DNA of 64,000 nt from Bacteroidales bacterium (GCA_036351015.1 JAZBOG010000020.1:1305-65304); one strand, 5' to 3'. Shown: positions 1,454-23,626, numbered from the stretch's first letter. The notes: a model not told the origin generated them from the sequence alone. Numbers and translations: made by a program.

Positions 1454-1984
1454 TTATTTTTCCTTCTTTTTTGTTTTTTTATCCATCGCCGATTTTCCTT
1501 CGGTCGTTTTTTCCTGTAAAGAAACAATCTCGTCCGACGAAAAAACTTTCTCCATATCCAGCAGCATGATAAACTTCTCGTCAACTTTTACCATTCCGTA
1601 AATAAATTCCGACTTATATTTACTGCCAATACTTGGTGGAGGTTGGATCTGGCTATCGTCAATTTCAAGTACTGCCTGAACCGAATCGACTAAAGCACCT
1701 ACCTGGACCATGTCATGATCCAGTTCAACTTCCATCACAACAATACAGGTGTTGTTGGTATATTCGGTGGGAGTCATTCCAAATTTAATCCGGGTATCAA
1801 TAACCGGCAAAACCGTACCCCGTAAATTAATTACTCCTTTCATATACGCGGGAGCCTTAGGAACCTCCGTAATTTTTGTCATCTCGAGGATATTCAGTAC
1901 TTTGCCCACATGGGCTGCAAATTCTTCGTCGCCCAACTTGAATGACAAATAAGAGTTAATCTTTGTTAATTCTTCTTTTTCCAT
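1454..1984 (-). CDS. cheW: Chemotaxis coupling protein CheW
   Basis: 176 aa. Typical CheW core (YLSFKLGDEEFA...VPKAPAYMKGVINLRGTVLPVIDTRIKFG). Lies 6 nt downstream of cheA. Confidence 0.85.
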   Translation of the reverse strand: MEKEELTKINSYLSFKLGDEEFAAHVGKVLNILEMTKITEVPKAPAYMKGVINLRGTVLPVIDTRIKFGMTPTEYTNNTCIVVMEVELDHDMVQVGALVDSVQAVLEIDDSQIQPPPSIGSKYKSEFIYGMVKVDEKFIMLLDMEKVFSSDEIVSLQEKTTEGKSAMDKKTKKKEK

Positions 1985-1990
1985 GATTCT

Positions 1991-4054
1991 TTAATTTTTT
2001 TGTTTTTTTTCTTCTGTAATTTCTTTTGAGAATTGTGCTATGATCTTATTCGGGTCCATTACCAAAGCTACGGTACCATCCCCTAATATAGTAGCTCCGG
2101 AGATAATCTCCTGTTGTTTGTATAATTTGCCCAATGATTTTAATACCGCCTGATATTCACCGACCACATCATCCACAACCAGCCCTATTTTCTGATCCGA
2201 GTAGCTAACCACAATAACCTGTTCAATGGATTGAGTTCCTTCCGGGAAATCAAACTCTTCCCGCAAATAATAGAAAGGAATTTGTTTGCCATCTAAAATG
2301 ATCATATTGTTAAAGGTGTTTACAACCTTTTGATGCTCGGTAGCGTAGATTTTGTCAACGGCATTTAACGGAATGATATAATGATTTTCAGCTATTTTTA
2401 CCAACAAACCATCAATGATGGAAAGTGTAAGTGGGAGTTTTATGGTAAGGGTAGTCCCTACATTAATCTCAGAGTCAATTTCTACCTCACCACGGATCTC
2501 GGCCAGTTTTCTCTTCACAACATCCATGCCCACTCCTCTGCCTGACACATCGGTTATATTCTGGGCGGTCGAAAATCCAGACCGAAAGGTAAGGTCCAGG
2601 ATCTCCTTTTTGGATAATACAGCATCCTTACTGATTAATCCTTTTTCTATCGCCTTCGCTCTTATTTTTGCAGGATCAATCCCAGCACCATCATCACTAA
2701 TCTGAATAATTACATTGGCTCCTGAATAAAAGGCTTTTAACAGGATTTTTCCCTGGGCCGGTTTTTTTAATTTCTTTCGTTGTTCTGCAGATTCTATTCC
2801 ATGATCAATACTGTTTCTAAGAATATGTAACAGCGGATCGGTAAGACTTTCAATAATTGTTTTATCCAGTTCTGTATCTACTCCTTCGGCACTAAAAGCA
2901 ATATCTTTATTTTGATCTTTGGACAAATCTCTGACCAAACGTTGAAACCGGGTAAGCATGGTCTCAATAGGAACTAACACAATGTCAAAGGCATTGTCGC
3001 GTAATTGTCTGGAAAGCTTCTGAACATTTTCTGCTATGGTCATCAATTCAGAGTCGCCTGTTTGCTCGGCATATAAACTTAACCGTGCCTGGGTGGTCAC
3101 CAGCTCGCTCACCAGGTTCATCATTCTGTCGAGTTTCCCCGAGGAAACCCTGATGCTTGAAATAGCATTTTCCTTTACAGAAGGTAGTGGACCCGTCTTT
3201 TTTATTTTCTTCTCGATCTCACTTAAATCACTGGATGAGTCTCCCTTTTTATCTTTTATCAACCTTTGAATCTCGGATAATCCAATATCATCTTTTGATG
3301 CTGCAATTTTGGCTAATTCCTGAACGATCGTTTCATGTGTTAAAATATTAAAATCGGCAACCTCGTTTATCTCCAGCTCACACTGATCCTCAACAAAAAT
3401 GAAGACATCGTTAATGTCATTTAGATGATTCTCGGTGGCAAGCAGTATCTCCCAATACGTATAACATTTAGTGACATCCAGGGTATCAATCGCAGGAATT
3501 TTATTCAGATGGGAAAATACTTTACAATCCCCTAACGAATGCAACTCATCTAAAAGGAATAAGGGGTTAGTGCCATCATTGAAGATATCCGGATCAGGAG
3601 CAAAATAAATATAATACGTTTTCAAACGGGATTCGGTTGACTTTTCTTTTGGCCCGGAGATTCCTATATCCTCTCCCCTGTTCTCTTCAATCTTTTTTAT
3701 CTTTACAATCAGATCGTTATGTTGGGCAGTAATTGCCGGTGAGTTTGAATCTTCATTGGACAACAAAACTTTCATATGATCGACCGACTGAAGGGTAATA
3801 TCCAATAAATCCCGGGTCACACTCAGCTTATCCTCCCGTACCAGGTCGTATACATTTTCAAGATGATGCGTAAAATCACTCAACTGCTGAAAGCCAAACA
3901 TGGCCCCCCCTCCTTTAATGGTATGCATAGCCCGAAAAACCCTCTCGACCAACTCCCTGTTGTTCGGTTCGTTTTCGAGAATTAACAGGGCATCCTCCAG
4001 ATCTTTAATATTATCTGTAGCTTCTTCTATAAATTTAGCAGTAAACTTATCCAT
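1991..4054 (-). CDS. cheA: Chemotaxis histidine kinase CheA
   Basis: 687 aa. HPt motif RAMHTIKGGGAMFGF, HATPase boxes (HILRNSIDHG, DDGAGID, GRGVGMDVV) and a C-terminal CheW-like P5 domain. 1-nt overlap with cheY. Confidence 0.9.
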   Translation of the reverse strand: MDKFTAKFIEEATDNIKDLEDALLILENEPNNRELVERVFRAMHTIKGGGAMFGFQQLSDFTHHLENVYDLVREDKLSVTRDLLDITLQSVDHMKVLLSNEDSNSPAITAQHNDLIVKIKKIEENRGEDIGISGPKEKSTESRLKTYYIYFAPDPDIFNDGTNPLFLLDELHSLGDCKVFSHLNKIPAIDTLDVTKCYTYWEILLATENHLNDINDVFIFVEDQCELEINEVADFNILTHETIVQELAKIAASKDDIGLSEIQRLIKDKKGDSSSDLSEIEKKIKKTGPLPSVKENAISSIRVSSGKLDRMMNLVSELVTTQARLSLYAEQTGDSELMTIAENVQKLSRQLRDNAFDIVLVPIETMLTRFQRLVRDLSKDQNKDIAFSAEGVDTELDKTIIESLTDPLLHILRNSIDHGIESAEQRKKLKKPAQGKILLKAFYSGANVIIQISDDGAGIDPAKIRAKAIEKGLISKDAVLSKKEILDLTFRSGFSTAQNITDVSGRGVGMDVVKRKLAEIRGEVEIDSEINVGTTLTIKLPLTLSIIDGLLVKIAENHYIIPLNAVDKIYATEHQKVVNTFNNMIILDGKQIPFYYLREEFDFPEGTQSIEQVIVVSYSDQKIGLVVDDVVGEYQAVLKSLGKLYKQQEIISGATILGDGTVALVMDPNKIIAQFSKEITEEKKQKN

Positions 4055-11259: not shown

Positions 11260-13257
11260 TTACCAATATTTTACTTCATAAGTTTGTTCCTGAGCATGCT
11301 GAGGTTCAATTTTTGAGATGTTATAATTCTCGCGGTATTCAATCAAACTAACATCGATATTTTCAAATCCGGAATCCTTATACCATCTTACAAAATGATA
11401 ATCAGCCTGCAGTAAATCCTGCTGATGATAATAGATACAATCTTCAAGGTTATTTCCGTATTTCAACAATGCCGATAAAAAGTACATCCCGATATCGAAA
11501 CCGTGGATTGCATATTGCTGGGGTTCTGTATTATAGGTTTCCCGATATTCTAGAATAAAATCTTTCACGTTATCCTTTTGATAATCTACAAAATAAGGAG
11601 TGCTAATACATAAATTCAGGTTAAAGTAATATTCTGTATCAATATTTCTAAACCTTTGCCAGCGGGATAATCCGCACACCTTTACAGGATAATTAAAAGC
11701 AGCTAAAGTATTTAAATTAGTAACCACGCTGGTAACAAAAGCTTCCTCATTGGACGGAACGACAAATACATTATCGACTTCCTTACTTGCAGCATGCTCC
11801 AATACGTTAATGCTGTCCTTAAAAACAACTTCTTTAAATTGAATACTCCCCAAAACAGAATCGGAGAAGTGGGCAAACAGCTTATCCTTAACCATTTGAA
11901 TATTATCATAATGTAAGCTATCCCCATTATGAACCAATACGAGGTTTTTATCCTTAAACCGGGTGATATATTCAACGTATTCATCAATTTGTGCAGCATA
12001 GGATGGTGTTACCTGAAAAAGAAAGGGATTTTCATCCACCAGTTGAAGATTATCCCATAAAGGAGATACCATTTTTATCTGGTGTTCTTTCGAAAACTCG
12101 GAGACCAGCTTTAATTCTTGATTATAAATCGGCCCAATCAACAGATCCATATTTTCCATCATCGGATAATTCAGTATTTCTTTAACCCGGGCCGTATCAT
12201 TTGCGGTATCATAAACATATAGATTAAGGTTTAAACCTGACTCTTTTAAACGATCAACCGCCAAAAGGAAACCTTCATAAAACTCAACAAAGTTTAACGA
12301 GCGAGGGTAGATATAATAAGGATCATAATACACCCGCTCATAAATTTTTTCACCCAGGTCATCTACTTCGCTTGAATCGATATAAAACTCCTCATCATTT
12401 TTATCAAGATAGAAGGGCAGTAATACAGCTACGTTAAAGGTTTGTCCTGTTTTTTGCGGAAAACTGTCGCAAGGAAATAACTCTGCCGAGTCGGAATATG
12501 CTATGGCAGTTCTTTCTTTATATAAAACGGAAGTATCTTTTCCCTCTTCGTCTGGCTGAAACAACAAACTAACAGGTTCGAACGTTTGTTTTTTAGGGAT
12601 TTTAATGGTTTGTCCTGCTTTCAATCCATCGGTTAAAAAGGGATTATGCTTAATCAAATCATCATACGATAGATCGAAGGTACGGGTTAATGAATAGATC
12701 GTTTCTTTTTTGGCAACGGTATGGTAAATAAAATCATCTTCAACAGGAACCGTATCCTTTACCTGATCATCTGTTTTGGGATACTGCTGGATCAGCTCAA
12801 CTACGCTTTTCGATTTAGGAATTTTTAATACTTCGCCCACATTAATTCCATACCGGGCATCAGGATTGCATATAATCAGGTCATCCAGTGAAACATCATA
12901 TTTTTTTGATAAAGAGTACAAGGTTTGCCCTTTTTTAACCTGATGATAAATAAACTGATCTTGGTCATCGCCTGCTGCAGCAGTCTGTTCATCAACAACA
13001 GGGATTTTTAAAGCTTGTCCGACCTGCAGCCCCAGAAAAATTTCAGGATTCTCTTTGGCGATCTCCTTTTGTGAAACATTATATAGCTTACTTAATGAAT
13101 ATAAAGTTTCTCCTTTTTTAACAATATGCACATAATAGATTTTTCCACCGATCATCACCTTATCTTCTGCTTTACGGAGCGTTAGGGTATCCTCCTGGGC
13201 TCCTGCAAAATTTTGAAAGATGATAACTATTAACAGAACAAACCAAACTCTTCTCAC
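11260..13257 (-). CDS. LysM-repeat protein fused to a type-1 periplasmic-binding-protein-like domain
   Basis: 665 aa with a signal peptide. Three LysM-like repeats (YVHIVKKGETLYSLSKLYNVS..., YHQVKKGQTLYSLSKKYDVS..., YHTVAKKETIYSLTRTFDLS...) followed by a ~400-aa PBP1-like region. Confidence 0.7.
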   Translation of the reverse strand: MRRVWFVLLIVIIFQNFAGAQEDTLTLRKAEDKVMIGGKIYYVHIVKKGETLYSLSKLYNVSQKEIAKENPEIFLGLQVGQALKIPVVDEQTAAAGDDQDQFIYHQVKKGQTLYSLSKKYDVSLDDLIICNPDARYGINVGEVLKIPKSKSVVELIQQYPKTDDQVKDTVPVEDDFIYHTVAKKETIYSLTRTFDLSYDDLIKHNPFLTDGLKAGQTIKIPKKQTFEPVSLLFQPDEEGKDTSVLYKERTAIAYSDSAELFPCDSFPQKTGQTFNVAVLLPFYLDKNDEEFYIDSSEVDDLGEKIYERVYYDPYYIYPRSLNFVEFYEGFLLAVDRLKESGLNLNLYVYDTANDTARVKEILNYPMMENMDLLIGPIYNQELKLVSEFSKEHQIKMVSPLWDNLQLVDENPFLFQVTPSYAAQIDEYVEYITRFKDKNLVLVHNGDSLHYDNIQMVKDKLFAHFSDSVLGSIQFKEVVFKDSINVLEHAASKEVDNVFVVPSNEEAFVTSVVTNLNTLAAFNYPVKVCGLSRWQRFRNIDTEYYFNLNLCISTPYFVDYQKDNVKDFILEYRETYNTEPQQYAIHGFDIGMYFLSALLKYGNNLEDCIYYHQQDLLQADYHFVRWYKDSGFENIDVSLIEYRENYNISKIEPQHAQEQTYEVKYW

Positions 13258-13364: not shown

Positions 13365-13402
13365 TGAAATAAAAAAATAAGCACAACAGAATTGTTATGC
13401 TT
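13365..13402 (-). terminator. Rho-independent terminator after the erythrin gene
   Basis: Minus strand reads AAGCATAACA-attc-TGTTGTGCTT (10-bp stem, one mismatch) followed by a T-run. Confidence 0.5.
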
Positions 13403-13424
13403 ATAATCAATTTATTTGCAGCCG

Positions 13425-13880
13425 CTAATTTTCTCTTAACACAAACTCGTCATATTCAATCTCAAACCTTAATTTATGTTTCGACTCTTCTTCGGCCAGG
13501 GAAAGGAAAACATCCTTCATTTCATCATTAACAGCCCTTTTGCTCAGTTCAAGATATAATTTATAGGCTGCTTTCTCCTTTTTCATGGCTAAAACCAGTG
13601 CCTCACTATAAGTCATGTCGGCTGCCGGTTTAACACTTACCATGTAATCGCTGATCTTAAGGTCTTTAATTTGATGGGATTCAGCCTGATAAGCACCCTC
13701 TGCCTTAATTTTAGTCAACCGGGCTTTATGCCCAATTTCTTCCTGTGCAAACTGGACAAAAACATTACGCATATCCTCTGTTTTTGCTATTTCTGCCAGG
13801 TCGTTATAAAAATCAACGGCTTCCTGTTCCGATTTTATGGCAAAATCAAAAATATCATCTATGGTTTTAAATTCTTTCAT
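13425..13880 (-). CDS. Rubrerythrin-like diiron four-helix-bundle protein lacking a rubredoxin domain (erythrin)
   Basis: 151 aa with two EExxH diiron motifs (QEEIGH, EEESKH) in a duplicated helix-pair layout. Lies 18 nt downstream of the 1234-aa oxidoreductase. Confidence 0.7.
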   Translation of the reverse strand: MKEFKTIDDIFDFAIKSEQEAVDFYNDLAEIAKTEDMRNVFVQFAQEEIGHKARLTKIKAEGAYQAESHQIKDLKISDYMVSVKPAADMTYSEALVLAMKKEKAAYKLYLELSKRAVNDEMKDVFLSLAEEESKHKLRFEIEYDEFVLREN

Positions 13881-13898
13881 AACACTGCTGTTTAATAG

Positions 13899-16800
13899 TT
13901 AAAAAGCTTGATCAAAATCTTGGTCAAATTTCTTGACCAGATAATCACATCCGTATTTAAAAAGTTTATTCATATTATCTTTTATTGTATAGCTAAAACT
14001 ATATTTCTCGGATTGATTGGTTGAGGGTAATAGTTCAAAAATTTCCTTCCGGATATCATCGATGGTTTTATCTATTTCTCCACCGGTAAATTTAGCCATT
14101 AAATGGATCAACTGAACATAATTTTCTTGTTCCACCTTCCCTTTAAATTGTTTTTCGAATTGCTGAATATGTTTTTGTGTATTGGTAAAACTACCTGAGG
14201 TTTCAACAGGGAAAGTAGCCGGTAGAATTAAGTCAGCCTGTTTAGCTGTTTCGGTCATAAAATAATCCTGCACCATGATAAATTCGGCATCGGCAAACCA
14301 TTTCTGGATTTTAGCTTTGTCCCTGGCACAGCCTATCGGATCTTCACCGAAGATATAGAACTTTTTAATTAATCCCTCATCGAGTAAATCCTTGGTGCAT
14401 TTCTCGTGGATTTCAGGTAAACTCTTAATCTTCCAGTTTTTCGACAATTTCTTAGCAAATTTCTCATCTTTTAAATCTGTATAACCAACCCCGTTTTTGG
14501 AAGAAATTCCCATATCAAATAATCCCTGTGCATTATTTTTCTCCTTAAGAGAGATAAGTCCACTGGATGTTTTGCCTAGTTTGCCCGTGATCATGGCTAG
14601 GTTAAACAACTCTTTGCTAACATTAGCCGATATATATTTCTCTGAAAAAACAATAATTCCATTCATCTCCCGGTTATAATTCTCGGCAAATTCTTCCAGG
14701 TGTTCCTGGCAACATATACCCGAAGCAGATACTAATTTTTGATAGTCTTCGTTCAACAATTCTTTCTTATATTGTTCAAATCCTATACAACGGTCCTTGA
14801 TAAACAATGAATTTTGTAATCCCCTACTAACCAGGTAGTAATTAACAGCCTTGATAAAATGATAATAGGATTTAATTTTCATAATTTTATCAACCTTATG
14901 CTCCAAAGCACTTTCTTTTCTGTCGGTAATTAGTTCTACAGGTACTTTATCGGTCTCCCGGGTATTATTTACCATAAACCCAACAACAGCATTATCCCTG
15001 TTTATTTCAGAGCCAAGCAGGTATATTTTACCTGCCTTTTTCAGTTGATCGAAAGGAACATTTGCTTTAAAATTAGATTCATAGCCTCTACCCTGACCTA
15101 AATAATAGAAACTGGTTACATTGTTGGTTTTGGCATTCGCCCGAGCCAGCTTTTGAATCAAATACATCTCTTCATTACTTAATCTAGCGCCTGCAAAGAA
15201 TCCATTCTCATCAGCATCTGCCCCTTTAATTTCGTCGGCAATCACATCAAAAGCTTTTTCCCAGCTGATGGTCTCAAAATTATCATCTACCTTAAGCAAG
15301 GGCTGGGTAATTCTTTGCAAATCATTCATAGCAGTATATCCAAATTTAGGATAACGGCAGATATTACCATCTTTATTTACCAGACCTTCTTTCCCGGTAG
15401 CTTTCCAAACAAATTCCGATTTATGATGATACTTTACTTCACATCCTACCGAACAATAATTACAAAGGGTATTCACAGAATCCAGTTTTACAGGTCCGGG
15501 TTTAAAGGAAGTATTTTCTGTAATGGCTCCGGTTGGACAGGTAGAAATGCACAGTCCACAGGACTCACACCGTGTATCCACCAACGATCCTCCCATACTT
15601 GGCGCAACATAAGTATCAAACCCCCGATTAACGAGACCTAATGCATTTGCACCTACTACTTCGTCACATATTCTGACACAACGGGCACATAAAATACATT
15701 TATTGTTGTCAATTTCAATAAAAGGGTGTGAAAAGTCAATAGAATATTCCTGAAATTCACCACTAAACCGCTTTTGTTCAGCATGATATTGTGAACTATA
15801 CTTTTTCAGATCGCAGGTAAAAAACTCGTTACAACCACATTCCAAACAACGATTAGTTTCATGCTGGGCAACATTCTCGTCAGCATAGCCTAATTCCACT
15901 TCTTCGAAATTATTCCGTCTGTCGGCAGGTAAAACAGGCATCTCTTCACGCAACTGCTGTTGATATCTGCCTAAAAAATCATCTGGGGAAAGTTCTTTAA
16001 AATTATCTTTTCTGCTTATAAATTCTTCAGCTTCAGGCTCTATGGGCAACCCTGACAAATACTGATGGCAACTTCTACTGGCAATCTTAGCCTGAGCAAT
16101 AGCTTCAATGATAGTTGCAGGTCCGGTTACGCCATCACCGGCAGCAAAAACAGAGGCAATTCCGGTTTGCAGAGTCTGTTCATTTGCAGCAATATCTCCC
16201 CAACGGTTCACTTCCAGTTTGCCTTTGTCCGAAAATTTATTGATATCATCTAAAAAATTAACGGTTGTTTTTTGGCCTATCGCTGCCAGCACGTAGTCCA
16301 ATTCAATTTCAAACTCAGAGCCTTCAATGGGAATTGGCCTCCTGCGCCCAGAGGCATCGGGCTCGCCCAGCTCCATTTTAACACAGGTCATGGTTTTTAA
16401 TTTCCCGTTTTTATCTTTATTAATCTTTACCGGGTTGGTTAAAAACAAATATTCTACCCCTTCAACTTTTGATTCATGGATTTCAATGGGGTTCGCCGGC
16501 ATCTCTTTTTCGGTTCTACGGTAAATAATGTATACTTTTTCTGCGCCACAACGAACAGAAGTCCGGCAGCAGTCCATGGCGGTATTTCCACCCCCCACAA
16601 CAGCAACCGTTTTTCCCGAAAAATCATATTTCTGACCGGTCATTTCCATGTTCCGCAAAAAGTCGATTCCTGAAAACACATTTTCAGCGTCATCACCCTC
16701 ACATCCAATTAATGTTCCCCGTTGTGAACCTATGGTTAAAATTACGGAATCGTATTTCTTTTTAAGCTCCCGGTAGCTTAAATTATCCCCCAATTTTTTC

Positions 16801-17603
16801 TGATAAAAAATATTGACTCCCAGTTCAGTAACTGCTGCTACTTCCTGGTCCAGTATATCATTGGGAAGACGGTATTCAGGGATTCCATAGCGTAACCAAC
16901 CACCCGGATTCGGACTGGCTTCGTAAATATCACACTGATGTCCCTTTTGTTGCAGGAAGTAGGCTGATGATAATCCCCCGGGACCGGCTCCAATGATGGC
17001 TATTTTTTTACCGGTAGAGGTTTCAATATCCGGAACATACCGCGCTTCGGAAAGTAAATCCTTATCCGCGGCAAACCGCTTCAAATAATCAATACCAACG
17101 CCACTACCCTCATCCAGGAAGTTTCTTCGACAGGCCAGTTCACAGGGGCGAACGCACACACGCCCACAAATTGCCGGTAATGGATTGGTTTGTTTTATAA
17201 GTCCTATAGCTTCACTATATAAACCTTTTTCTATAAACGAAATATATCCCTGTACATCTACACCAGCCGGACAGGTTTGCTTACAAGGAGCTTCACAATC
17301 GGCATAGTGATTACTTACCAATAGATCTAATGCTGTTTTACGAGCTTTTTGAACCTTCTCATTTTCTGTTTCTATACGCATTCCCTCTTGTATCTTCGTA
17401 GAGCATGAAGGTTGCATTCCTTTCATCCCTTCCACTTCGACAACACAAACAAAACACGATGAAAAAGGCTGAAGCCTGGGATCATTACAAAGGGTTGGGA
17501 TTTTAATTTCATGTCGGTTGGCTAATTCGAGAATTGTTTCGCCGGGATTGCCTTTAACATTTTTCCCGTTTAGGATGATATTGAGTTGATTACTTTTTTT
17601 CAT
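13899..17603 (-). CDS. Multidomain Fe-S flavoprotein: NuoG/HydA-type [2Fe-2S] + inserted GltD/NfnB-like FAD/NAD(P)H module + NuoG-type Fe-S clusters + cofactor-less molybdopterin-oxidoreductase-like domain
   Basis: 1234 aa. C39/C50/C53/C67 form the 2Fe-2S site. CEAPCKQTCP and CGRVCVRPCELAC are the GltD N-terminal clusters. GAGPGG and VVGGGNTAMD are dinucleotide folds. HETNRCLECGCNEFFTCDLK is a His-Cys3 cluster like NuoG N5. CILCARCVRIC and CESCGLCISTCP are 2x[4Fe-4S]. CNYCSVGC is the molybdopterin-type 4Fe-4S. SNEEMYLIQKLAR and ADLILPATFPVETSGSFTN are molybdopterin-domain motifs. Confidence 0.85.
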   Translation of the reverse strand: MKKSNQLNIILNGKNVKGNPGETILELANRHEIKIPTLCNDPRLQPFSSCFVCVVEVEGMKGMQPSCSTKIQEGMRIETENEKVQKARKTALDLLVSNHYADCEAPCKQTCPAGVDVQGYISFIEKGLYSEAIGLIKQTNPLPAICGRVCVRPCELACRRNFLDEGSGVGIDYLKRFAADKDLLSEARYVPDIETSTGKKIAIIGAGPGGLSSAYFLQQKGHQCDIYEASPNPGGWLRYGIPEYRLPNDILDQEVAAVTELGVNIFYQKKLGDNLSYRELKKKYDSVILTIGSQRGTLIGCEGDDAENVFSGIDFLRNMEMTGQKYDFSGKTVAVVGGGNTAMDCCRTSVRCGAEKVYIIYRRTEKEMPANPIEIHESKVEGVEYLFLTNPVKINKDKNGKLKTMTCVKMELGEPDASGRRRPIPIEGSEFEIELDYVLAAIGQKTTVNFLDDINKFSDKGKLEVNRWGDIAANEQTLQTGIASVFAAGDGVTGPATIIEAIAQAKIASRSCHQYLSGLPIEPEAEEFISRKDNFKELSPDDFLGRYQQQLREEMPVLPADRRNNFEEVELGYADENVAQHETNRCLECGCNEFFTCDLKKYSSQYHAEQKRFSGEFQEYSIDFSHPFIEIDNNKCILCARCVRICDEVVGANALGLVNRGFDTYVAPSMGGSLVDTRCESCGLCISTCPTGAITENTSFKPGPVKLDSVNTLCNYCSVGCEVKYHHKSEFVWKATGKEGLVNKDGNICRYPKFGYTAMNDLQRITQPLLKVDDNFETISWEKAFDVIADEIKGADADENGFFAGARLSNEEMYLIQKLARANAKTNNVTSFYYLGQGRGYESNFKANVPFDQLKKAGKIYLLGSEINRDNAVVGFMVNNTRETDKVPVELITDRKESALEHKVDKIMKIKSYYHFIKAVNYYLVSRGLQNSLFIKDRCIGFEQYKKELLNEDYQKLVSASGICCQEHLEEFAENYNREMNGIIVFSEKYISANVSKELFNLAMITGKLGKTSSGLISLKEKNNAQGLFDMGISSKNGVGYTDLKDEKFAKKLSKNWKIKSLPEIHEKCTKDLLDEGLIKKFYIFGEDPIGCARDKAKIQKWFADAEFIMVQDYFMTETAKQADLILPATFPVETSGSFTNTQKHIQQFEKQFKGKVEQENYVQLIHLMAKFTGGEIDKTIDDIRKEIFELLPSTNQSEKYSFSYTIKDNMNKLFKYGCDYLVKKFDQDFDQAF

Positions 17604-17668
17604 TGGTCATTGGGTTAATAATTGATTATAACTTTTTACTGATTAACATCCATTTAAAAAGTCTGACT

Positions 17669-19447
17669 TTAGGATAAAACAATGGCATCAAATTTACATT
17701 TCGAATAACACATTCCGCATTTTATACAAGCCTCCTGCCGGATAAAATGTACTTCTTTTCTTGCTCCATCAATTGCATCTGACGGGCAATTTTTGGCACA
17801 TACAGTACAACCGGTACATTTTTCAGGATCAACGGTGTACGTAAGTAGTTTTTTACAATTTAATGCAGGGCATTTTTTATCCTTGATATGGGCTTCATAC
17901 TCATGGCGGAAATACTTAATGGTAGTTAATACCGGATTTGGCGCTGTTTGTCCCAAACCACACAATGAATTGTCTTTAATTTGATAAGCAAGTTCTTCCA
18001 GTTTTTCGATGTCTCCTTCCTCACCTTCACCTTCGGTGATGCGGGTAAGTATTTCGAGCATTCGTTTGGTTCCGATGCGGCAGAATGTACATTTTCCACA
18101 CGATTCTTTCCGGGTAAAATCAAGAAAGAAACGAGCCATATCGACCATACAGGTGGTTTCATCCATCACCACCATCCCCCCGGATCCCATAATTGCGCCG
18201 GTAGCATTCACCGAATCATAATCAACAATGGTATCGGCAAGGTACTCAGGGATACAGCCTCCGGAAGGGCCACCCAGTTGAACCGCTTTAAATTTCTTGT
18301 CCCCGGTAATGCCGCCTCCTAATTTAAAAATAATATCATGGATTGAAATTCCCATAGGGACCTCAACAGCTCCTCCGTGTTTAATTTTCCCGGTAAGTGC
18401 AAAAACTTTGGTTCCTTTACTTTTTTCTGTACCATACCGGGAAAAGGATTGGGCCCCGTTTAAAATGATGTAAGGGATATTGGCAAAAGTTTCCACATTA
18501 TTAATGTTTGAAGGTTTACCCCATAATCCTGCTTCGGCAGGAAAAGGAGGTCGTTTCCTGGGCATCCCGCGTTCCCCTTCCACAGAGGCAATCAATGCTG
18601 TTTCTTCACCACAGACAAAGGCTCCTGCACCTTCTTTCACATACAGATCAAAATGAAAACCTTTCATTCCCAGAATATTTTTACCAAGATAGCCTTTCTC
18701 CCTTGCCTGCCCAAGAGCTATATTAAGCCTTTTAATCGCCAGGGGATATTCAGCCCGGCAATAGATTACACCTTCTGTGGCACCAATGGCATACCCCCCA
18801 ATAATTAATCCTTCAATTACAGCATGCGGATCACCCTCCAACAATGAACGGTCCATAAAAGCACCGGGATCTCCTTCGTCGGCATTACAGATGATATATT
18901 TTTCGTCGGATTGGTTTTTATAGGCAAACCTCCATTTTAACCCTGTGGGGAAACCACCTCCTCCACGGCCCCGGATTCCTGAATCTAAAACCGTTTGAAT
19001 TACCTGTTCCTGATCGATTTTTTCTGCAACTATTTTTTTAATTCCTTTATATCCATCATTCTTTTCGTATTCATCGATACTTTCAGGATTGATTATTCCA
19101 CAATGACGAAGGGCTATTTTTACCTGTCCATCCCAAAAGGTGTCGTCCGGGGATTTAAACAGATCGCTTTTAACCACGTAATCCTTAATCGGTTCGCTCT
19201 GTTTGAGATGTTTATCAAAAATCTCAACCGCTTTCTCTTCATTAATGTCTCCATATAAATAGGACCCGGTATCATCAACCACCTCCACTAATGGTTCCCG
19301 GTAACACATGCCAATACAACCGGTTTTTTTCAATTCAAAATCAAGTTGATCTGCATGCTTTAAAGCGATGAGTTTATCGTAAACTTTTTGAGCACCTGCA
19401 GAAATTCCACAGCTTGCCAATCCAACCAAAACTTTTGTTTTTTCCAT
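17669..19447 (-). CDS. NuoF/HydB-type NADH-binding FMN Fe-S subunit
   Basis: 592 aa. N-terminal thioredoxin-like 2Fe-2S domain, GRGGGGFPTGLKW (FMN), CNADEGDPGAF, ESCGKCTFCRIG (N3-type cluster) and a C-terminal 2x[4Fe-4S] ferredoxin (CTGCTVCAKNCP, CIKCGMCYSKC). Confidence 0.9.
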   Translation of the reverse strand: MEKTKVLVGLASCGISAGAQKVYDKLIALKHADQLDFELKKTGCIGMCYREPLVEVVDDTGSYLYGDINEEKAVEIFDKHLKQSEPIKDYVVKSDLFKSPDDTFWDGQVKIALRHCGIINPESIDEYEKNDGYKGIKKIVAEKIDQEQVIQTVLDSGIRGRGGGGFPTGLKWRFAYKNQSDEKYIICNADEGDPGAFMDRSLLEGDPHAVIEGLIIGGYAIGATEGVIYCRAEYPLAIKRLNIALGQAREKGYLGKNILGMKGFHFDLYVKEGAGAFVCGEETALIASVEGERGMPRKRPPFPAEAGLWGKPSNINNVETFANIPYIILNGAQSFSRYGTEKSKGTKVFALTGKIKHGGAVEVPMGISIHDIIFKLGGGITGDKKFKAVQLGGPSGGCIPEYLADTIVDYDSVNATGAIMGSGGMVVMDETTCMVDMARFFLDFTRKESCGKCTFCRIGTKRMLEILTRITEGEGEEGDIEKLEELAYQIKDNSLCGLGQTAPNPVLTTIKYFRHEYEAHIKDKKCPALNCKKLLTYTVDPEKCTGCTVCAKNCPSDAIDGARKEVHFIRQEACIKCGMCYSKCKFDAIVLS

Positions 19448-19478
19448 AAAAAAATATTTTAATTATCCCAATGAGGGA

Positions 19479-19997
19479 TTAATTACTTTCCTTTATTTTT
19501 ATCTCTTTCACAATTTTTACTGCCTGATTTCCGGTTAGTTTTCCAAAAGTCTCATCACCAATCATCATTACCGGAGCAAGAGAACAACAACCAAGGCAGG
19601 CAACAGATTCCAGCGTAAAAAGGTTATCCTCAGTAGTTTCGCCATCGTTAACCCCCAAAGCATCCTCCAATGCTTCGCTTATGGCTGTAGCATTCTGAAC
19701 ATGACAGGCTGTTCCGTGGCAAACCTTAATAATATGCTTTCCTACCGGATTTAACCTGAACTGGGTATAGAATGTTGCCACCCCAAACATTTCACTCAGT
19801 TCTAATCCTGTAACTTCAGCTATTTTATAAAAAGCCTCCCGGGGTAGATAACCATAAATATTCTGCGTACCTTGTAATATGGGTATTAAACTCCCTTTCT
19901 TTTGCTTATATTTTTCTAATAGAGGATCAATTAGTGAAAGATCAACAGAGGGCCCTTCAGTACCCTCAATTTTAGGCAAGATTCTTTGAACACGCAT
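19479..19997 (-). CDS. NuoE/HydC-type [2Fe-2S] subunit
   Basis: 172 aa. VCHGTACHV and CLGCCSLAP cysteine motifs of the 24-kDa/NuoE family. First gene of the operon. Confidence 0.9.
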   Translation of the reverse strand: MRVQRILPKIEGTEGPSVDLSLIDPLLEKYKQKKGSLIPILQGTQNIYGYLPREAFYKIAEVTGLELSEMFGVATFYTQFRLNPVGKHIIKVCHGTACHVQNATAISEALEDALGVNDGETTEDNLFTLESVACLGCCSLAPVMMIGDETFGKLTGNQAVKIVKEIKIKESN

Positions 19998-20199
19998 AAT
20001 TGTAGAGCTTAGTTTTCGAAAATTCTTTAATTATTTTGCTTCTTAAATAAGGGTTCAATATATAATTTTGAATGATGAATAACAAAATTAATCTTATGCC
20101 GTATAATATTTTTACTGAAATCTGTTATTATTGCACTTTTTACAAAGTTATTTATAATTATTCTATTCTATTTTGTAAATTGCACAAAAATAAACAACT

Positions 20200-20403
20200 A
20201 TGGCATTTAGTGAAAGTGGTGAACGTATACGTAAATTGATAATCAAGGCTATCGATGATCATATCATTACCCCGGAAGAATACGATGAAATTCTTGAAAT
20301 CTCTTTTGAAGATGGGCATATTGATGCTCAGGAACAGGCCTTGCTAACCGAATTACAAAAAATGATTGAAAATAAAGAGATTCGGTTTGCTAAAGAAGAA
20401 TGA
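20200..20403 (+). CDS. Small acidic hypothetical protein (67 aa)
   Basis: Isolated ORF in an otherwise non-coding 670-bp interval. No motif recognised. Confidence 0.35.
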   Translation: MAFSESGERIRKLIIKAIDDHIITPEEYDEILEISFEDGHIDAQEQALLTELQKMIENKEIRFAKEE

Positions 20404-20671: not shown

Positions 20672-23626
20672 ATGAAAAAAAGATTGGTTATCGGTATAAC
20701 TGACCACCCTCTTTTAGGGCTGATTATGTCCCCTTACATTGTCACTATCAGGCCAAATCACGGATTTTATCCGATCGAAGCCAAAATTTCCAGGTTAAAT
20801 ATTAGCAGGTATATTGATTTTTTTACCGAGAATGAGAAAAAAGTATTGGAAGCCATCGAAGAATATAGCGATCAGAGTTTACATAAATTGTTTTCACGAA
20901 AGAAAAAAGATACTACGGTTGACTTTATGAAAAAGCTGGACAGGCCATTTGCTGAAAAATATATTCGACCCTATCTAGAAAAGAAGATGGCAAAAGCTGT
21001 TGATTTCCTCTACGATACCAACCTGCAACTATTTTATAAAGAAAAACCTAAATACATTAATTCAGAAGACAGAATTGAGCAATATAAACCTAACGCTCAA
21101 GCAATTTTTAACATAACACGCCTTGAACATGAGAGTCATTACTATCTAACGGTAAAACACCAGGATGAAGAAATCCATTTATTGAATAAACCCTCTCAAA
21201 TACTGGTTGAAAATCCAGCCCATATCATTATTGAAAATAATCTCTACCGTTTTGAAGATATTAATGCCAAAAAACTACTTCCCTTTTTTCATAAAGAAAG
21301 TATTCGTATTCCTAAATCCTCGGAAGAGATATGGTTTAAAACCTTTGCCCTGGATATTGTCAAAAACTTTAATGTGAAACCCTCAGGATTTGAAATTGAT
21401 GAAACCATAGATCATAAAAAAGCGGTTTTTAGCTTCGAAAAAAACCTGGAAGGAAAACCTGTTTTTCATTTATATTTTATTTACAATCAACTATTTAAAT
21501 TTGATGCTTTCAAAGAAAACAGGGTCTCTGTAAAATTTGAAAAACAAAATGAACAGTACCTTTTCTACAAAATAGCCCGGGATGATTCATGGGAAAATCA
21601 AATCATCCAGAAAATAAAATCCATGGGGTTAATACATTTAAATGAATCATACTTTAGCCTACCCGAAAATGTGGATACTGAATTATCCAACCAGTTATTT
21701 CAGACCGTAAGGTGGTTGCAACAAAATAAAAATCAAATTTTAAAAACGGGAATTAGCCTTAATCAGGATCGAATGGATATTTCCTATAATTTCGACCCCG
21801 TATGCATTGAAACAAATCTTGAAGAGAAAAGTGACTGGTTTGATATTTATATCCGGGTTCAAATAGGAGAGTTTACTCTCCCCTTTACCAAATTCAGAAA
21901 AAATATTTTAAACGGGAATCCGGAATACAAGCTACCCAATGGAGAAATAGCCATTTTACCCCGGGAGTGGTTTTCCAAATACCAGGAATTGTTCCAGTTT
22001 GGAAAAGAAGATAAGGGACACCTGATTTTAAAGAAGCACCATTTCGGCTTATTGGACCACCATGTGCCGGAAAAAGACTTATCGATTATAGAAAAATATA
22101 TAAACCTTCTTCGTGAGATAAATCATCTACATTACAAAGTTCCTCAACCCTTAGAAGCAGCATTAAGGCCTTATCAAAAAACCGGTTATTCCTGGATGCA
22201 ACTCCTTCAGGAGTATCATTTTGGCGGATGCCTGGCCGATGATATGGGATTGGGGAAAACGATACAAACCCTGACCTTACTTTTAAAAGCCAAAGAAACG
22301 AAGCCAAAGGATCAAGAAAATTACCCTGAAGCTGCACCTGAACTTTCCCAATTAAGTATTTTTGATGAAATCAAAACACAATTTACCCATTCTTCTTCTC
22401 AAACCTCCCTTATTGTCATGCCCACCTCACTAATCCATAACTGGGCGGAAGAAATAAATAAGTTTACCCCCTCGCTTTCCTGTTTCAAATACACAGGTCA
22501 AAACCGTCCAAAAGAACTTCATATCTTTAGGGAATTTGACATTATTTTAACAACTTATGGAATTGTACGCAATGATCTGGATCTGCTTGTTAAGTTCAAG
22601 TTTCATTACTTAATTCTGGATGAAAGCCAGTATATTAAGAATCCGGATTCCAAAATATATAAAGCGGTAAACCAGTTAAATTCATGTCACCGCCTGGTAT
22701 TAACCGGCACCCCAATTGAAAATTCCCTGACCGACTTATGGGCACAACTCAATTTTCTCAATAGGGGCCTGCTGGGAAATCTCCGTTTTTTTAAACGAGA
22801 GTTTATTCTTCCCATAGAAAAAAAATCCGATGTCCAAAAGAAAGAGAAGTTGCAACAATTTATAAAACCTTTTATTTTACGAAGAACCAAGCAGCAAGTA
22901 GCTAAAGATTTGCCTGAAAAAATAGAATCGGTGATCTATTGTGATATGACAGAAGAACAAAAATCCTTTTATGAAAAAGAAAAATCAAAAATAAGAAATT
23001 CGATTATTGAACATATTGAAACCGATGAACACAAGCCTGTCATGCTGGCCATTGAAGGGTTAACCAAATTAAGGCAAATAGCCAATCATCCCATTTTAAC
23101 AGATCCCGATTATCAAAAAGAATCAGGAAAATTTGAAGAAATTACACGCAATATTGAAAATTTAATTGCTGAAAAGCATAAAGTACTTATTTTTTCTGCT
23201 TATGTAAAGCATTTGCAACTTATTGCACATTATCTCGAAAAATCCCAACATTCCTATTCGATGTTAACGGGGAGTACGAAAAACCGTGACCAGGTAATTA
23301 AAGATTTTCAAAATTCACCCGAAAAATCAGTATTCCTTATACAGATTAAAGCCGGGGGGGTGGGATTAAACCTAACGGCTGCCGATTATGTATTTATCAT
23401 CGATCCATGGTGGAATCCTGCCGTGGAGGAACAAGCCATTAACCGGGCACACCGCATTGGGCAGGATAAGAATGTTATGGTTTATCGTTTTATCTCTTCA
23501 GACACTGTAGAAGAAAAAATTCAACGACTTAAATCAAAAAAATCAAAACTCGCCAACACCTTTGTTAATACCGAACGGGCTGAACAAAAAATGAATTTAG
23601 ACCTGATCCTGGAATTTCTTCGTTAA
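20672..23626 (+). CDS. SNF2-family helicase/ATPase with a long N-terminal accessory region
   Basis: 984 aa. Helicase motifs LADDMGLGKTIQ (I), LILDESQYIKN (II), TGTPIEN (III), and C-terminal motifs GGVGLNLTAADYVFIIDPWWNPAVEEQAINRAHRIGQ. Confidence 0.9.
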   Translation: MKKRLVIGITDHPLLGLIMSPYIVTIRPNHGFYPIEAKISRLNISRYIDFFTENEKKVLEAIEEYSDQSLHKLFSRKKKDTTVDFMKKLDRPFAEKYIRPYLEKKMAKAVDFLYDTNLQLFYKEKPKYINSEDRIEQYKPNAQAIFNITRLEHESHYYLTVKHQDEEIHLLNKPSQILVENPAHIIIENNLYRFEDINAKKLLPFFHKESIRIPKSSEEIWFKTFALDIVKNFNVKPSGFEIDETIDHKKAVFSFEKNLEGKPVFHLYFIYNQLFKFDAFKENRVSVKFEKQNEQYLFYKIARDDSWENQIIQKIKSMGLIHLNESYFSLPENVDTELSNQLFQTVRWLQQNKNQILKTGISLNQDRMDISYNFDPVCIETNLEEKSDWFDIYIRVQIGEFTLPFTKFRKNILNGNPEYKLPNGEIAILPREWFSKYQELFQFGKEDKGHLILKKHHFGLLDHHVPEKDLSIIEKYINLLREINHLHYKVPQPLEAALRPYQKTGYSWMQLLQEYHFGGCLADDMGLGKTIQTLTLLLKAKETKPKDQENYPEAAPELSQLSIFDEIKTQFTHSSSQTSLIVMPTSLIHNWAEEINKFTPSLSCFKYTGQNRPKELHIFREFDIILTTYGIVRNDLDLLVKFKFHYLILDESQYIKNPDSKIYKAVNQLNSCHRLVLTGTPIENSLTDLWAQLNFLNRGLLGNLRFFKREFILPIEKKSDVQKKEKLQQFIKPFILRRTKQQVAKDLPEKIESVIYCDMTEEQKSFYEKEKSKIRNSIIEHIETDEHKPVMLAIEGLTKLRQIANHPILTDPDYQKESGKFEEITRNIENLIAEKHKVLIFSAYVKHLQLIAHYLEKSQHSYSMLTGSTKNRDQVIKDFQNSPEKSVFLIQIKAGGVGLNLTAADYVFIIDPWWNPAVEEQAINRAHRIGQDKNVMVYRFISSDTVEEKIQRLKSKKSKLANTFVNTERAEQKMNLDLILEFLR

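Follow-up and report, generated by a model that had tools for sequence, protein, structure and literature searches.

The window analysed here is a stretch of 64,000 nucleotides from a Bacteroidales bacterium (GCA_036351015.1 JAZBOG010000020.1:1305-65304). Between positions 13425 and 19997, its minus strand holds four genes, which encode a NuoE-like protein, a NuoF-like protein, a large Fe-S flavoprotein, and an erythrin. The initial annotation described four co-directional genes lying 18-65 nt apart, and the open reading frames (ORFs) are indeed found there, with gaps of 31, 65, and 18 nt between them. The proposed subunit make-up also agrees with Pfam, which gives a 24-kDa-type [2Fe-2S] protein, a NuoF-type flavin mononucleotide (FMN) subunit, a large Fe-S flavoprotein, and a rubredoxin-less Rubrerythrin-family protein. 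In the order of transcription, the genes are:

19479..19997, minus strand: NuoE-like gene nfnC / stnA (BfuC); 172 amino acids (aa), Pfam 2Fe-2S_thioredx 3.6e-51
17669..19447, minus strand: NuoF-like gene nfnB / stnB (BfuB); 592 aa, Pfam Complex1_51K, NADH_4Fe-4S, and Fer4
13899..17603, minus strand: large-subunit gene nfnA / stnC (BfuA); 1234 aa, identified by phmmer against the PDB
13425..13880, minus strand: erythrin gene; 151 aa, Pfam Rubrerythrin 2.5e-15

On every criterion that can be tested in sequence, the first three genes are a member of the Nfn-Bfu family (Bfu family, Type 1), to which StnABC of Sporomusa ovata belongs. This core is not a new architecture; judged in the same way, it is a Bacteroidales member of a known family of electron-bifurcating transhydrogenases. 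The erythrin is the sole new element, a modestly interesting add-on that is specific to a clade.

The three-gene core and its known relatives

Along the large subunit, Pfam recognises Fer2_4 (residues 5-81), Fer4_20 (102-182), Pyr_redox_2 (200-505), Fer4_Nqo3 (627-695), Molybdop_Fe4S4 (709-760), and Molybdopterin (764-1159). The gene can be divided into four parts, described here with reference to StnC, the S. ovata large subunit:

17361..17591, minus strand: N-terminal [2Fe-2S] domain, residues 5-81; Fer2_4 2.3e-18; C39, C50, C53, and C67 correspond to StnC C36/C47/C50/C64
16050..17300, minus strand: inserted GltD/NfnB-like module, residues 102-518; Pfam Fer4_20 and Pyr_redox_2; Rossmann folds for flavin adenine dinucleotide (FAD) and NADPH
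15324..15860, minus strand: NuoG-type cluster region, residues 582-760; Pfam Fer4_Nqo3 and Molybdop_Fe4S4; all positions align to StnC Cys
14019..15314, minus strand: FdhF-like molybdopterin-fold domain, catalytically dead, residues 764-1195; Pfam Molybdopterin 1.9e-30

The large subunit had been described as a fusion of NuoG and GltD. Both modules are present, but they are not joined end to end. Instead, the GltD module interrupts the NuoG-like part, coming after the N-terminal [2Fe-2S] domain and before the other NuoG-like clusters. The module carries two [4Fe-4S] clusters (C103/107/111 and C150/154/158), K175, and the Rossmann-fold residues R245 and R362-R363. The Cys of the NuoG-type clusters are C586/589/591/597, C636/639/642/646, C679/682/685/689, and C714/717/721/749.

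When the large subunit is compared with the PDB using phmmer, the best matches are NfnA of Caldicellulosiruptor saccharolyticus (Csac; 9bov_A, 1178 aa, E = 1e-232, query 9-1039 and 1073-1199), StnC (8oh5_C, 1172 aa, 1.1e-232), and an archaeal NfnA (9n5u_A, 4e-181). Csac NfnA and StnC have the same domain order as the large subunit. The initial annotation could not match the protein to a characterised enzyme and suggested an uncharacterised architecture. This suggestion must be given up, since the large subunit falls within a characterised family of the same domain order, and all three subunits have their best matches in the same three cryo-electron microscopy structures (8oh5, 9bov, and 9n5u). 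Its comparison to the bifurcating logic of HydABC, Nfn, and Stn enzymes with two nucleotide sites, in which StnABC was named, is correct.

StnC consists of a hydrogenase-like [2Fe-2S] N-terminus (residues 1-101), a GltD fold (102-565), the NuoG clusters, and an inactive FdhF-like domain (683-1172), and it holds six [4Fe-4S] clusters and one [2Fe-2S] cluster (Kumar 2023, PMC10482914). Over residues 6-771 the large subunit is 46.5% identical to it; candidate StnC orthologues have been reported at 37-49% identity (Kremp 2020, PMC7483475). Of the 32 Cys in StnC, 28 are kept, including every Cys of a cluster motif, which provides ligands for one [2Fe-2S] and six [4Fe-4S] clusters. K175 corresponds to StnC K170, the Lys ligand of the FAD-proximal cluster, and R245 corresponds to StnC R239. 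K175, R245, and R362/R363 are invariant in all 78 members of the clade to which the protein belongs.

The other two subunits are just as similar to their counterparts. For the NuoE-like protein, the best PDB matches are 9bov_C (Csac NfnC), 8oh5_A (StnA), and 9n5u_C (archaeal NfnC), with E-values from 3e-55 to 6e-50. It is 54.6% identical to StnA, keeps five of its six Cys, and has all four ligands of [2Fe-2S] cluster C1 (C93, C98, C134, and C138). The NuoF-like protein matches 8oh5_B (StnB, 5e-262), 9n5u_B (archaeal NfnB), and 9bov_B (Csac NfnB) over its full length, with E-values between 5e-262 and 4e-251. It is 64.1% identical to StnB and keeps 23 of 25 Cys, every motif Cys among them.

In the NuoF-like protein, Pfam finds Complex1_51K, NADH_4Fe-4S, C-terminal Fer4 domains, and a weak N-terminal thioredoxin-like match. 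The His/Cys site B2 is present (H520, C433, C526, and C531), as are the C-terminal [4Fe-4S] ligands of B3/B4 (C544/547/550/554 and C574/577/580/584) and the Cys of the N-terminal B5 domain (C13/C44/C48/C116). The B2 His occurs in virtually all bifurcating BfuB and is missing from non-bifurcating homologues (Schut 2022, PMC9304861). Since both the B2 His and the C-terminal clusters are present, the protein carries the sites that separate bifurcating from non-bifurcating NuoF homologues. The pair that gives archaeal NfnB its selectivity for NADH (E286 and R303) is found as E282 and R299.

For the Fe-S chain that would link the two flavin sites, the initial annotation estimated roughly ten clusters; homology to StnABC gives 11-12 metal clusters for the complex.

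One of the closest known systems is S. ovata StnABC, the Sporomusa-type Nfn (8oh5/8oh9; Kremp 2020, PMC7483475; Kumar 2023, PMC10482914). Its three subunits are those found here and their genes follow one another in the same order; the large subunits agree in their succession of domains, in all cluster Cys motifs, and in K170 and R239. The large subunit in the window differs from StnC in being about 60 residues longer, in having Val in place of C114, and in a set of additional Cys that are invariant in its clade. The host of StnABC is an acetogen, in which three consecutive genes encode the enzyme and purification yields three subunits; here the host is a Bacteroidales bacterium, and a fourth gene encodes the erythrin.

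Csac NfnABC (9bov/9bp5; Li 2025, PMC11829005) gives the best overall PDB match of the large subunit, nearly from end to end (query 9-1199), and the B and C subunits match over their full length. The B5 site at the N-terminus of Csac NfnB binds Zn; from its sequence, the B5 site in the window may hold either Zn or [2Fe-2S]. Unlike the operon in the window, the published Csac operon is without an erythrin.

The archaeal Nfn-Bfu (9n5u/9n5v; PMC12018979) shares the BfuBC core, Val at the position of StnC C114, the Lys ligand, and the Glu/Arg pair for NADH selectivity. Its NfnA is shorter, at 963 aa: one ferredoxin-type cluster motif is missing, as is most of the FdhF-like domain. The protein in the window is of the long bacterial type. 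The Nfn-Bfu operon of Thermococcus sibiricus has also been characterised (Schut 2022, PMC9304861).

Additional Cys of the clade are found at several positions of the large subunit. C146, C345, C346, C352, and C1219 are invariant or nearly so, occurring in 76-78 of 78 sequences of the Bacteroidota clade. The first four positions were compared with S. ovata StnC, which has Ile, Val, Ala, and Leu there, respectively. With C146, the GltD cluster motif becomes C-x3-C-x3-C-x3-C; the clade is the same one that has Val in place of StnC C114. The other three aligned Cys lie within the NADPH Rossmann fold, in the motif 'AMDCCRTSxRCG'. These residues could serve as an alternative cluster modulator or as a redox switch.

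The FdhF-like domain deserves separate mention, because of the labels that public databases give to large-subunit homologues: 'molybdopterin-dependent oxidoreductase', 'FAD-dependent oxidoreductase', or 'formate dehydrogenase major subunit'. If the first and last labels were taken at face value, the large subunit would be a formate dehydrogenase alpha subunit or molybdopterin oxidoreductase, and the operon would encode an NAD(P)-linked formate dehydrogenase. The C-terminal half does match FdhF-type chains at 1e-44 to 1e-50. However, the positions of SeCys140 and His141 in E. coli FdhH are occupied by Gly and Gln in the alignment. In addition, the large subunit has no Pfam match to the Molydop_binding cap domain (PF01568), and its alignment to FdhH stops before the cap. 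The FdhF-like domain is therefore non-catalytic, as is the equivalent domain of StnC, which is cofactor-less and inactive, and is required for assembly of the tetramer (Kumar 2023, PMC10482914). An Mo/W formate dehydrogenase is ruled out on these defining features, which makes this identity of the operon extremely improbable. As the catalytic residues and the cap domain are missing, the public labels look like a systematic mis-annotation.

Several other identities were considered and rejected. Classical NfnAB (NfnSL) has a separate FNR-like NfnA/S gene, which is not found in the operon, and Glu on the FAD-proximal cluster, where the large subunit has Lys as in StnC. A HydABC [FeFe]-hydrogenase does not fit, because Pfam finds no Fe-hydrogenase large-subunit domain; only the N-terminal Fe-S part is HydA-like. 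Respiratory complex I is rejected as well, since neither membrane subunits nor NuoB/C/D/I occur among the window ORFs of at least 150 aa that were scanned with Pfam (37 of 42). The initial annotation, which saw no H-cluster, membrane Nuo subunit, or functional formate dehydrogenase site, is confirmed on these points. A glutamate synthase large subunit was not seen among the annotated genes of the window either.

The erythrin and its linkage to the core

The fourth protein is called an erythrin rather than a rubrerythrin, because it has no fused rubredoxin-type Fe(Cys)4 domain and, in its 151 aa, no Cys at all. It shares with rubrerythrin proper (e.g. 1ryt) the diiron four-helix-bundle domain with Glu/His ligands, and differs in lacking the C-terminal rubredoxin-like domain. 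Across 34 homologues, some as little as 36% identical, the diiron ligands E18, E48, H51, E102, E132, and H135 reach at least 90% conservation. An AlphaFold (AF2) model gives a four-helix bundle of long helices, with a predicted local distance difference test score (pLDDT) of 85 and a predicted template modelling score (pTM) of 0.79.

The nearest structures by both sequence and fold are TM1526 of T. maritima (1vjx) and 2fzf of P. furiosus, with E-values of 2.6e-8 and 2.6e-5, a template modelling score of 0.75, and 22-28% identity. These are COG1633-type ferritin-like diiron-carboxylate proteins, with the same single-domain four-helix bundle and two sets of E/ExxH ligands. The next structural neighbours are Dps-like proteins, rubrerythrin, and bacterioferritins.

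The erythrin family is large, with 1895 representatives at the 50% clustering level (E <= 1e-3), nearly all of them stand-alone proteins of about 150 aa. Some relatives are fused to other domains: three have an N-terminal desulforedoxin-type Fe(Cys)4 domain (Desulfoferrod_N) and one has an AhpC/TSA peroxiredoxin domain. The fused representatives are P0278, P0343, P0309, and P0365, and their architectures look like peroxide or oxygen defence. These fusions argue for the diiron domain being a redox catalyst that is fed by an iron centre and acts in oxidative-stress defence. Fusions to Bfu or GltD modules were not found among the best 150 family representatives. NCBIfam PRK12775, a model for a fusion of NfnA, GltD, and a ferritin domain, is matched by the GltD module and not by the erythrin, so it gives no support for such a fusion.

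In the window, the erythrin gene follows the large-subunit gene closely. Two non-coding features flank the operon:

13377..13404, minus strand: terminator-like hairpin; 12-bp stem and T-run, 21 nt past the erythrin stop codon
19998..20199, minus strand: upstream non-coding region; three TAnnTTTG -7 motifs (Bacteroidetes-type) at 20083-20090, 20143-20150, and 20185-20192

The hairpin is likely the end of a four-gene transcript. No comparable site occurs in the 18 nt that separate the large-subunit gene from the erythrin gene. A strong hairpin after the erythrin and none before it fit a single transcript of all four genes. The upstream motifs suggest a possible promoter on weak evidence from sequence. 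As the -7 motif is not enriched across the window (78 matches against 82.8 expected), the promoter is put forward as a suggestion only. A scan for promoters of the sigma-70 type, which is not applicable to Bacteroidota, gave 24 sites where 23.9 were expected. An Rfam search of the window returned zero families.

The same neighbourhood was examined in 80 related loci, 65 of which have enough upstream sequence and 65 enough downstream sequence to be informative. The order NuoE, NuoF, large subunit is kept in 65 of 65 loci. Recurrence of the arrangement therefore holds for the three-gene core and only in part for the full set of four genes: an erythrin lies directly 3' of the large subunit and on the same strand in 45 of 65 loci (69%), with gaps of 16-771 nt, and it is missing from whole sub-clades. 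In a neighbour-joining tree of large subunits the linked state is widespread, and the unlinked state is mostly confined to two coherent sub-clades and three tips. This distribution fits long vertical retention with few losses. In loci that lack the erythrin, the downstream genes show no relationship from one locus to the next.

Erythrins that are at most 48% identical to the one in the window are found in unrelated contexts, and one at 59% identity again follows a sequence for the C-terminal end of an NfnA-type subunit. The Nfn-linked erythrins thus form a sub-family.

One locus, in a metagenome-assembled genome of Ignavibacteriaceae, has a different arrangement (L029:11776-15831). Three genes lie between its Bfu-type large subunit and the erythrin. 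They encode a 293-aa Cys-rich protein, an NfnA/S-like protein of the FNR type (DHODB_Fe-S_bind and NAD_binding_1), and a 596-aa GltD-like protein with a 150-aa N-terminal extension. With this NfnSL-like pair beside the Bfu genes, the cluster contains two different NADPH-ferredoxin modules. Because the pair sits before the erythrin, it is once more a GltD-type gene that precedes the erythrin. At L006:11943-13701 the first two extra genes are present as well, and no erythrin is within range.

Beyond the clade, an erythrin is missing from all five Nfn-Bfu loci, of the Firmicutes type or other types, for which downstream sequence is available. A metagenome scan with Firmicutes-type queries gave about nine true Nfn-Bfu loci out of 25, and because true loci were so few, the statement that no erythrin occurs outside the Bacteroidota/Ignavibacteriota group draws on five informative loci. 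Characterised Nfn-Bfu enzymes are encoded by three-gene operons, purify as three subunits, and are strict heterotrimers (e.g. Kremp 2020, PMC7483475). A conserved erythrin beside Nfn-Bfu was not found described in the searchable literature.

A partial precedent is Rub-Bfu, the predicted Type 4 Bfu (Schut 2022, PMC9304861), which likewise has a rubrerythrin-family gene directly 3' of Bfu genes. Its proposed role is peroxide detoxification driven by NADH and ferredoxin; such complexes of BfuBC plus rubrerythrin have been predicted and are uncharacterised. Rub-Bfu is defined as being without BfuA, and its rubrerythrin comes right after bfuB. In the window, by contrast, a full-length Nfn-type BfuA is present and the erythrin comes after bfuA.

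Proposed mechanism and alternative readings

By homology to the solved enzymes, NADP(H) would react with the FAD that the large subunit carries in its inserted GltD-like module. Single electrons would then pass along the chain of [4Fe-4S] and [2Fe-2S] clusters until they reach the FMN in the NuoF-like subunit. Together with the neighbouring [4Fe-4S] cluster and with the [2Fe-2S] cluster in the NuoE-like subunit, this FMN would form the site where electron pairs are split or merged (bifurcation or confurcation). NAD(H) would bind at the FMN, and the C-terminal 2x[4Fe-4S] domain of the NuoF-like subunit would be the site for ferredoxin. The FdhF-like domain would be a non-catalytic scaffold. In a fermentative anaerobe, the reaction would likely run from reduced ferredoxin and NADH towards NADPH for biosynthesis.

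For the erythrin, the most likely role is that of an accessory protein, specific to the clade and co-transcribed with the core, that would remove O2 or H2O2. By reducing either of these, it would most likely protect the oxygen-sensitive, Fe-S-rich enzyme, or use reductant from it. Taken together, it is highly probable that the core works by the Nfn-Bfu/Stn transhydrogenase mechanism and that the erythrin is an O2- or H2O2-reducing accessory of the clade, which is probably not a stoichiometric subunit.

Several points weigh against this reading. For the core, StnC C114, which modulates cluster C7, is V117 here and Val or Ile in all 78 clade members. C114 is not a defining residue, however: Val is also found at this position in the characterised archaeal NfnA, and the StnC paper calls K170 'strictly conserved in all StnC' and C114 not strictly conserved, with Val or Ile in some homologues (Kumar 2023, PMC10482914). 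Since characterised enzymes lack the invariant Cys of the clade, the properties of the clade enzyme could differ. Bacteroidota members of Nfn-Bfu are known from sequence, and the enzymatic activity of the core, that of a bifurcating, ferredoxin-dependent NADPH:NAD+ oxidoreductase which in this family forms a tetramer of heterotrimers, is a prediction. For the erythrin, the gene is absent from 19 of 65 loci and lies 3.7 kb away in one more. No alignment position or region of the large subunit tells erythrin-linked members from unlinked ones. The closest solved relatives of the erythrin, 1vjx and 2fzf, are structural-genomics entries with no assigned function, and no gene for a rubredoxin or small ferredoxin that could act as donor was found in the window.

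Alternatively, all four proteins may work as a single machine that combines Nfn-Bfu with the predicted Rub-Bfu, in which a docked erythrin takes electrons from NAD(P)H and/or ferredoxin and reduces H2O2 or O2. The initial annotation gave a similar idea as its second option, with a complex that could feed NAD(P)H electrons to the diiron protein. Docking could take place at the ferredoxin site, for instance, or at the dead-end C1/C2 cluster branch of the FdhF-like domain, as the corresponding branch in StnC has no known role in electron transfer (Kumar 2023, PMC10482914). An integrated machine would account for the tight linkage in the window, with its 18-nt gap and shared terminator, and for the retention of that linkage over a clade in which the identity between large subunits falls to about 63%. 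It is also in line with the GltD-type gene before the erythrin in the Ignavibacteriaceae locus, with the BfuBC-plus-rubrerythrin complexes predicted by Schut 2022 (PMC9304861), and with an erythrin that has no electron-entry domain of its own while relatives have a fused Fe(Cys)4 domain. On the other hand, the loci without an erythrin include two whole sub-clades, and erythrin-linked large subunits have no positions of their own that set them apart. In many loci the intergenic gap is as wide as several hundred nt, the complexes characterised so far are strict heterotrimers, and the more distant erythrins (at most 48% identical) sit in unrelated contexts. A four-protein machine is unlikely, because whole sub-clades do without the erythrin, no signal of coevolution is seen, and no fusion to a Bfu subunit occurs among the best 150 family representatives. 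It is equally doubtful that Nfn-Bfu of Bacteroidota and Ignavibacteriota recruited a dedicated erythrin as a fourth redox partner, diverting electrons to O2 or H2O2, possibly through the FdhF-like cluster branch. If true, this would be the first tractable case of rubrerythrin-coupled Bfu chemistry, which has so far only been predicted.

The erythrin may also be functionally unrelated to the enzyme. Its role would then lie in oxidative stress or iron handling in general, for instance as a ferroxidase, as an iron donor, or in the repair of Fe-S clusters, and it would merely share a transcript or a neighbourhood. The size of its family, whose 1895 representatives are mostly stand-alone and occur in varied contexts, including beside ferritin genes, speaks for this, as do the Dps-like proteins and bacterioferritins among its structural neighbours and its dispensability in many relatives. 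However, 69% adjacency over deep divergence, always on the same strand and directly 3', goes beyond a chance neighbourhood. The Nfn-linked erythrins are a sub-family of their own at about 50% identity or more, and the fusions to redox-entry and peroxiredoxin domains argue for redox catalysis over storage. An unrelated function is thus rather unlikely, and the accessory that scavenges O2 or H2O2 is the preferred reading.

The erythrin offers a cheap handle on what rubredoxin-less erythrins of the COG1633/TM1526 type do. It is also a handle on the coupling of Bfu-type bifurcating modules to peroxide or oxygen reduction, which is so far a prediction.

Distribution and neighbouring genes

Homologues of the large subunit are abundant. 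At E <= 1e-50, more than 7998 are found in the protein database. The top 120 are full-length, 64-87% identical, and come from metagenome-assembled genomes of Bacteroidota/Bacteroidales and from Saccharicrinis isolates. A scan of GTDB, with one genome per species, finds close relatives in at least 559 species, almost all of them Bacteroidota. The phylum of the host is not new for Nfn-Bfu, since Nfn-type BfuB has already been listed as 'also in Synergistetes and Bacteroidetes' (Schut 2022, PMC9304861). A literature search for StnABC, NfnABC, or Nfn together with Bacteroid* found no papers, and this sentence on BfuB in Bacteroidetes is the sole relevant text.

Stn/Nfn-Bfu transhydrogenases are thus very widespread in Bacteroidales, and the core enzyme in the window is ordinary in kind. 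Naming these proteins correctly bears on metabolic models of Bacteroidota from gut, sediment, and digesters, in particular on how NADPH is supplied from ferredoxin and NADH.

Five metagenome contigs (L090, L091, L092, L093, and L102) encode a permuted large subunit, in which the GltD module comes first, followed by the [2Fe-2S] domain and then the NuoG/FdhF-like part. In L090-L092, and weakly in L102, the match to the NuoF-like protein stops at about residue 535-540, apparently without the C-terminal 2x[4Fe-4S] domain of the ferredoxin site. The permuted loci may be non-bifurcating relatives of Nfn-Bfu.

The remaining window consists of ordinary chromosomal housekeeping genes with a GC content of 30-42%. 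Directly 3' of the erythrin (11260-13257, minus strand) is a gene for a 665-aa protein with three LysM repeats and a periplasmic-binding-protein domain (Peripla_BP_6/ANF_receptor). The same gene occupies this position in 18 related loci, most of the closest ones among them, and its identity drops to 34-41% in more distant ones.

On the other side, divergent from the operon, a 67-aa acidic ORF (20200-20403, plus strand) lies inside a 675-nt gap before an SNF2 helicase gene. The helicase (20672-23626, plus strand) has 984 aa and shows sub-threshold similarity to ZorD, DrmD, and pilus-regulating Snf2 models. No further defence-system genes were recognised beside it.

Two other regions of the window can be mentioned. 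CheW and a CheA-type histidine kinase (Hpt, H-kinase_dim, HATPase_c, and CheW domains) are encoded at 1454-4054 on the minus strand; chemotaxis signalling genes are not known to be common in Bacteroidota. At 43784-46237 on the plus strand lies a gene for an 817-aa FeoA-FeoB fusion, a ferrous iron transporter, which is followed by a DUF456 gene and a tandem universal-stress-protein gene.

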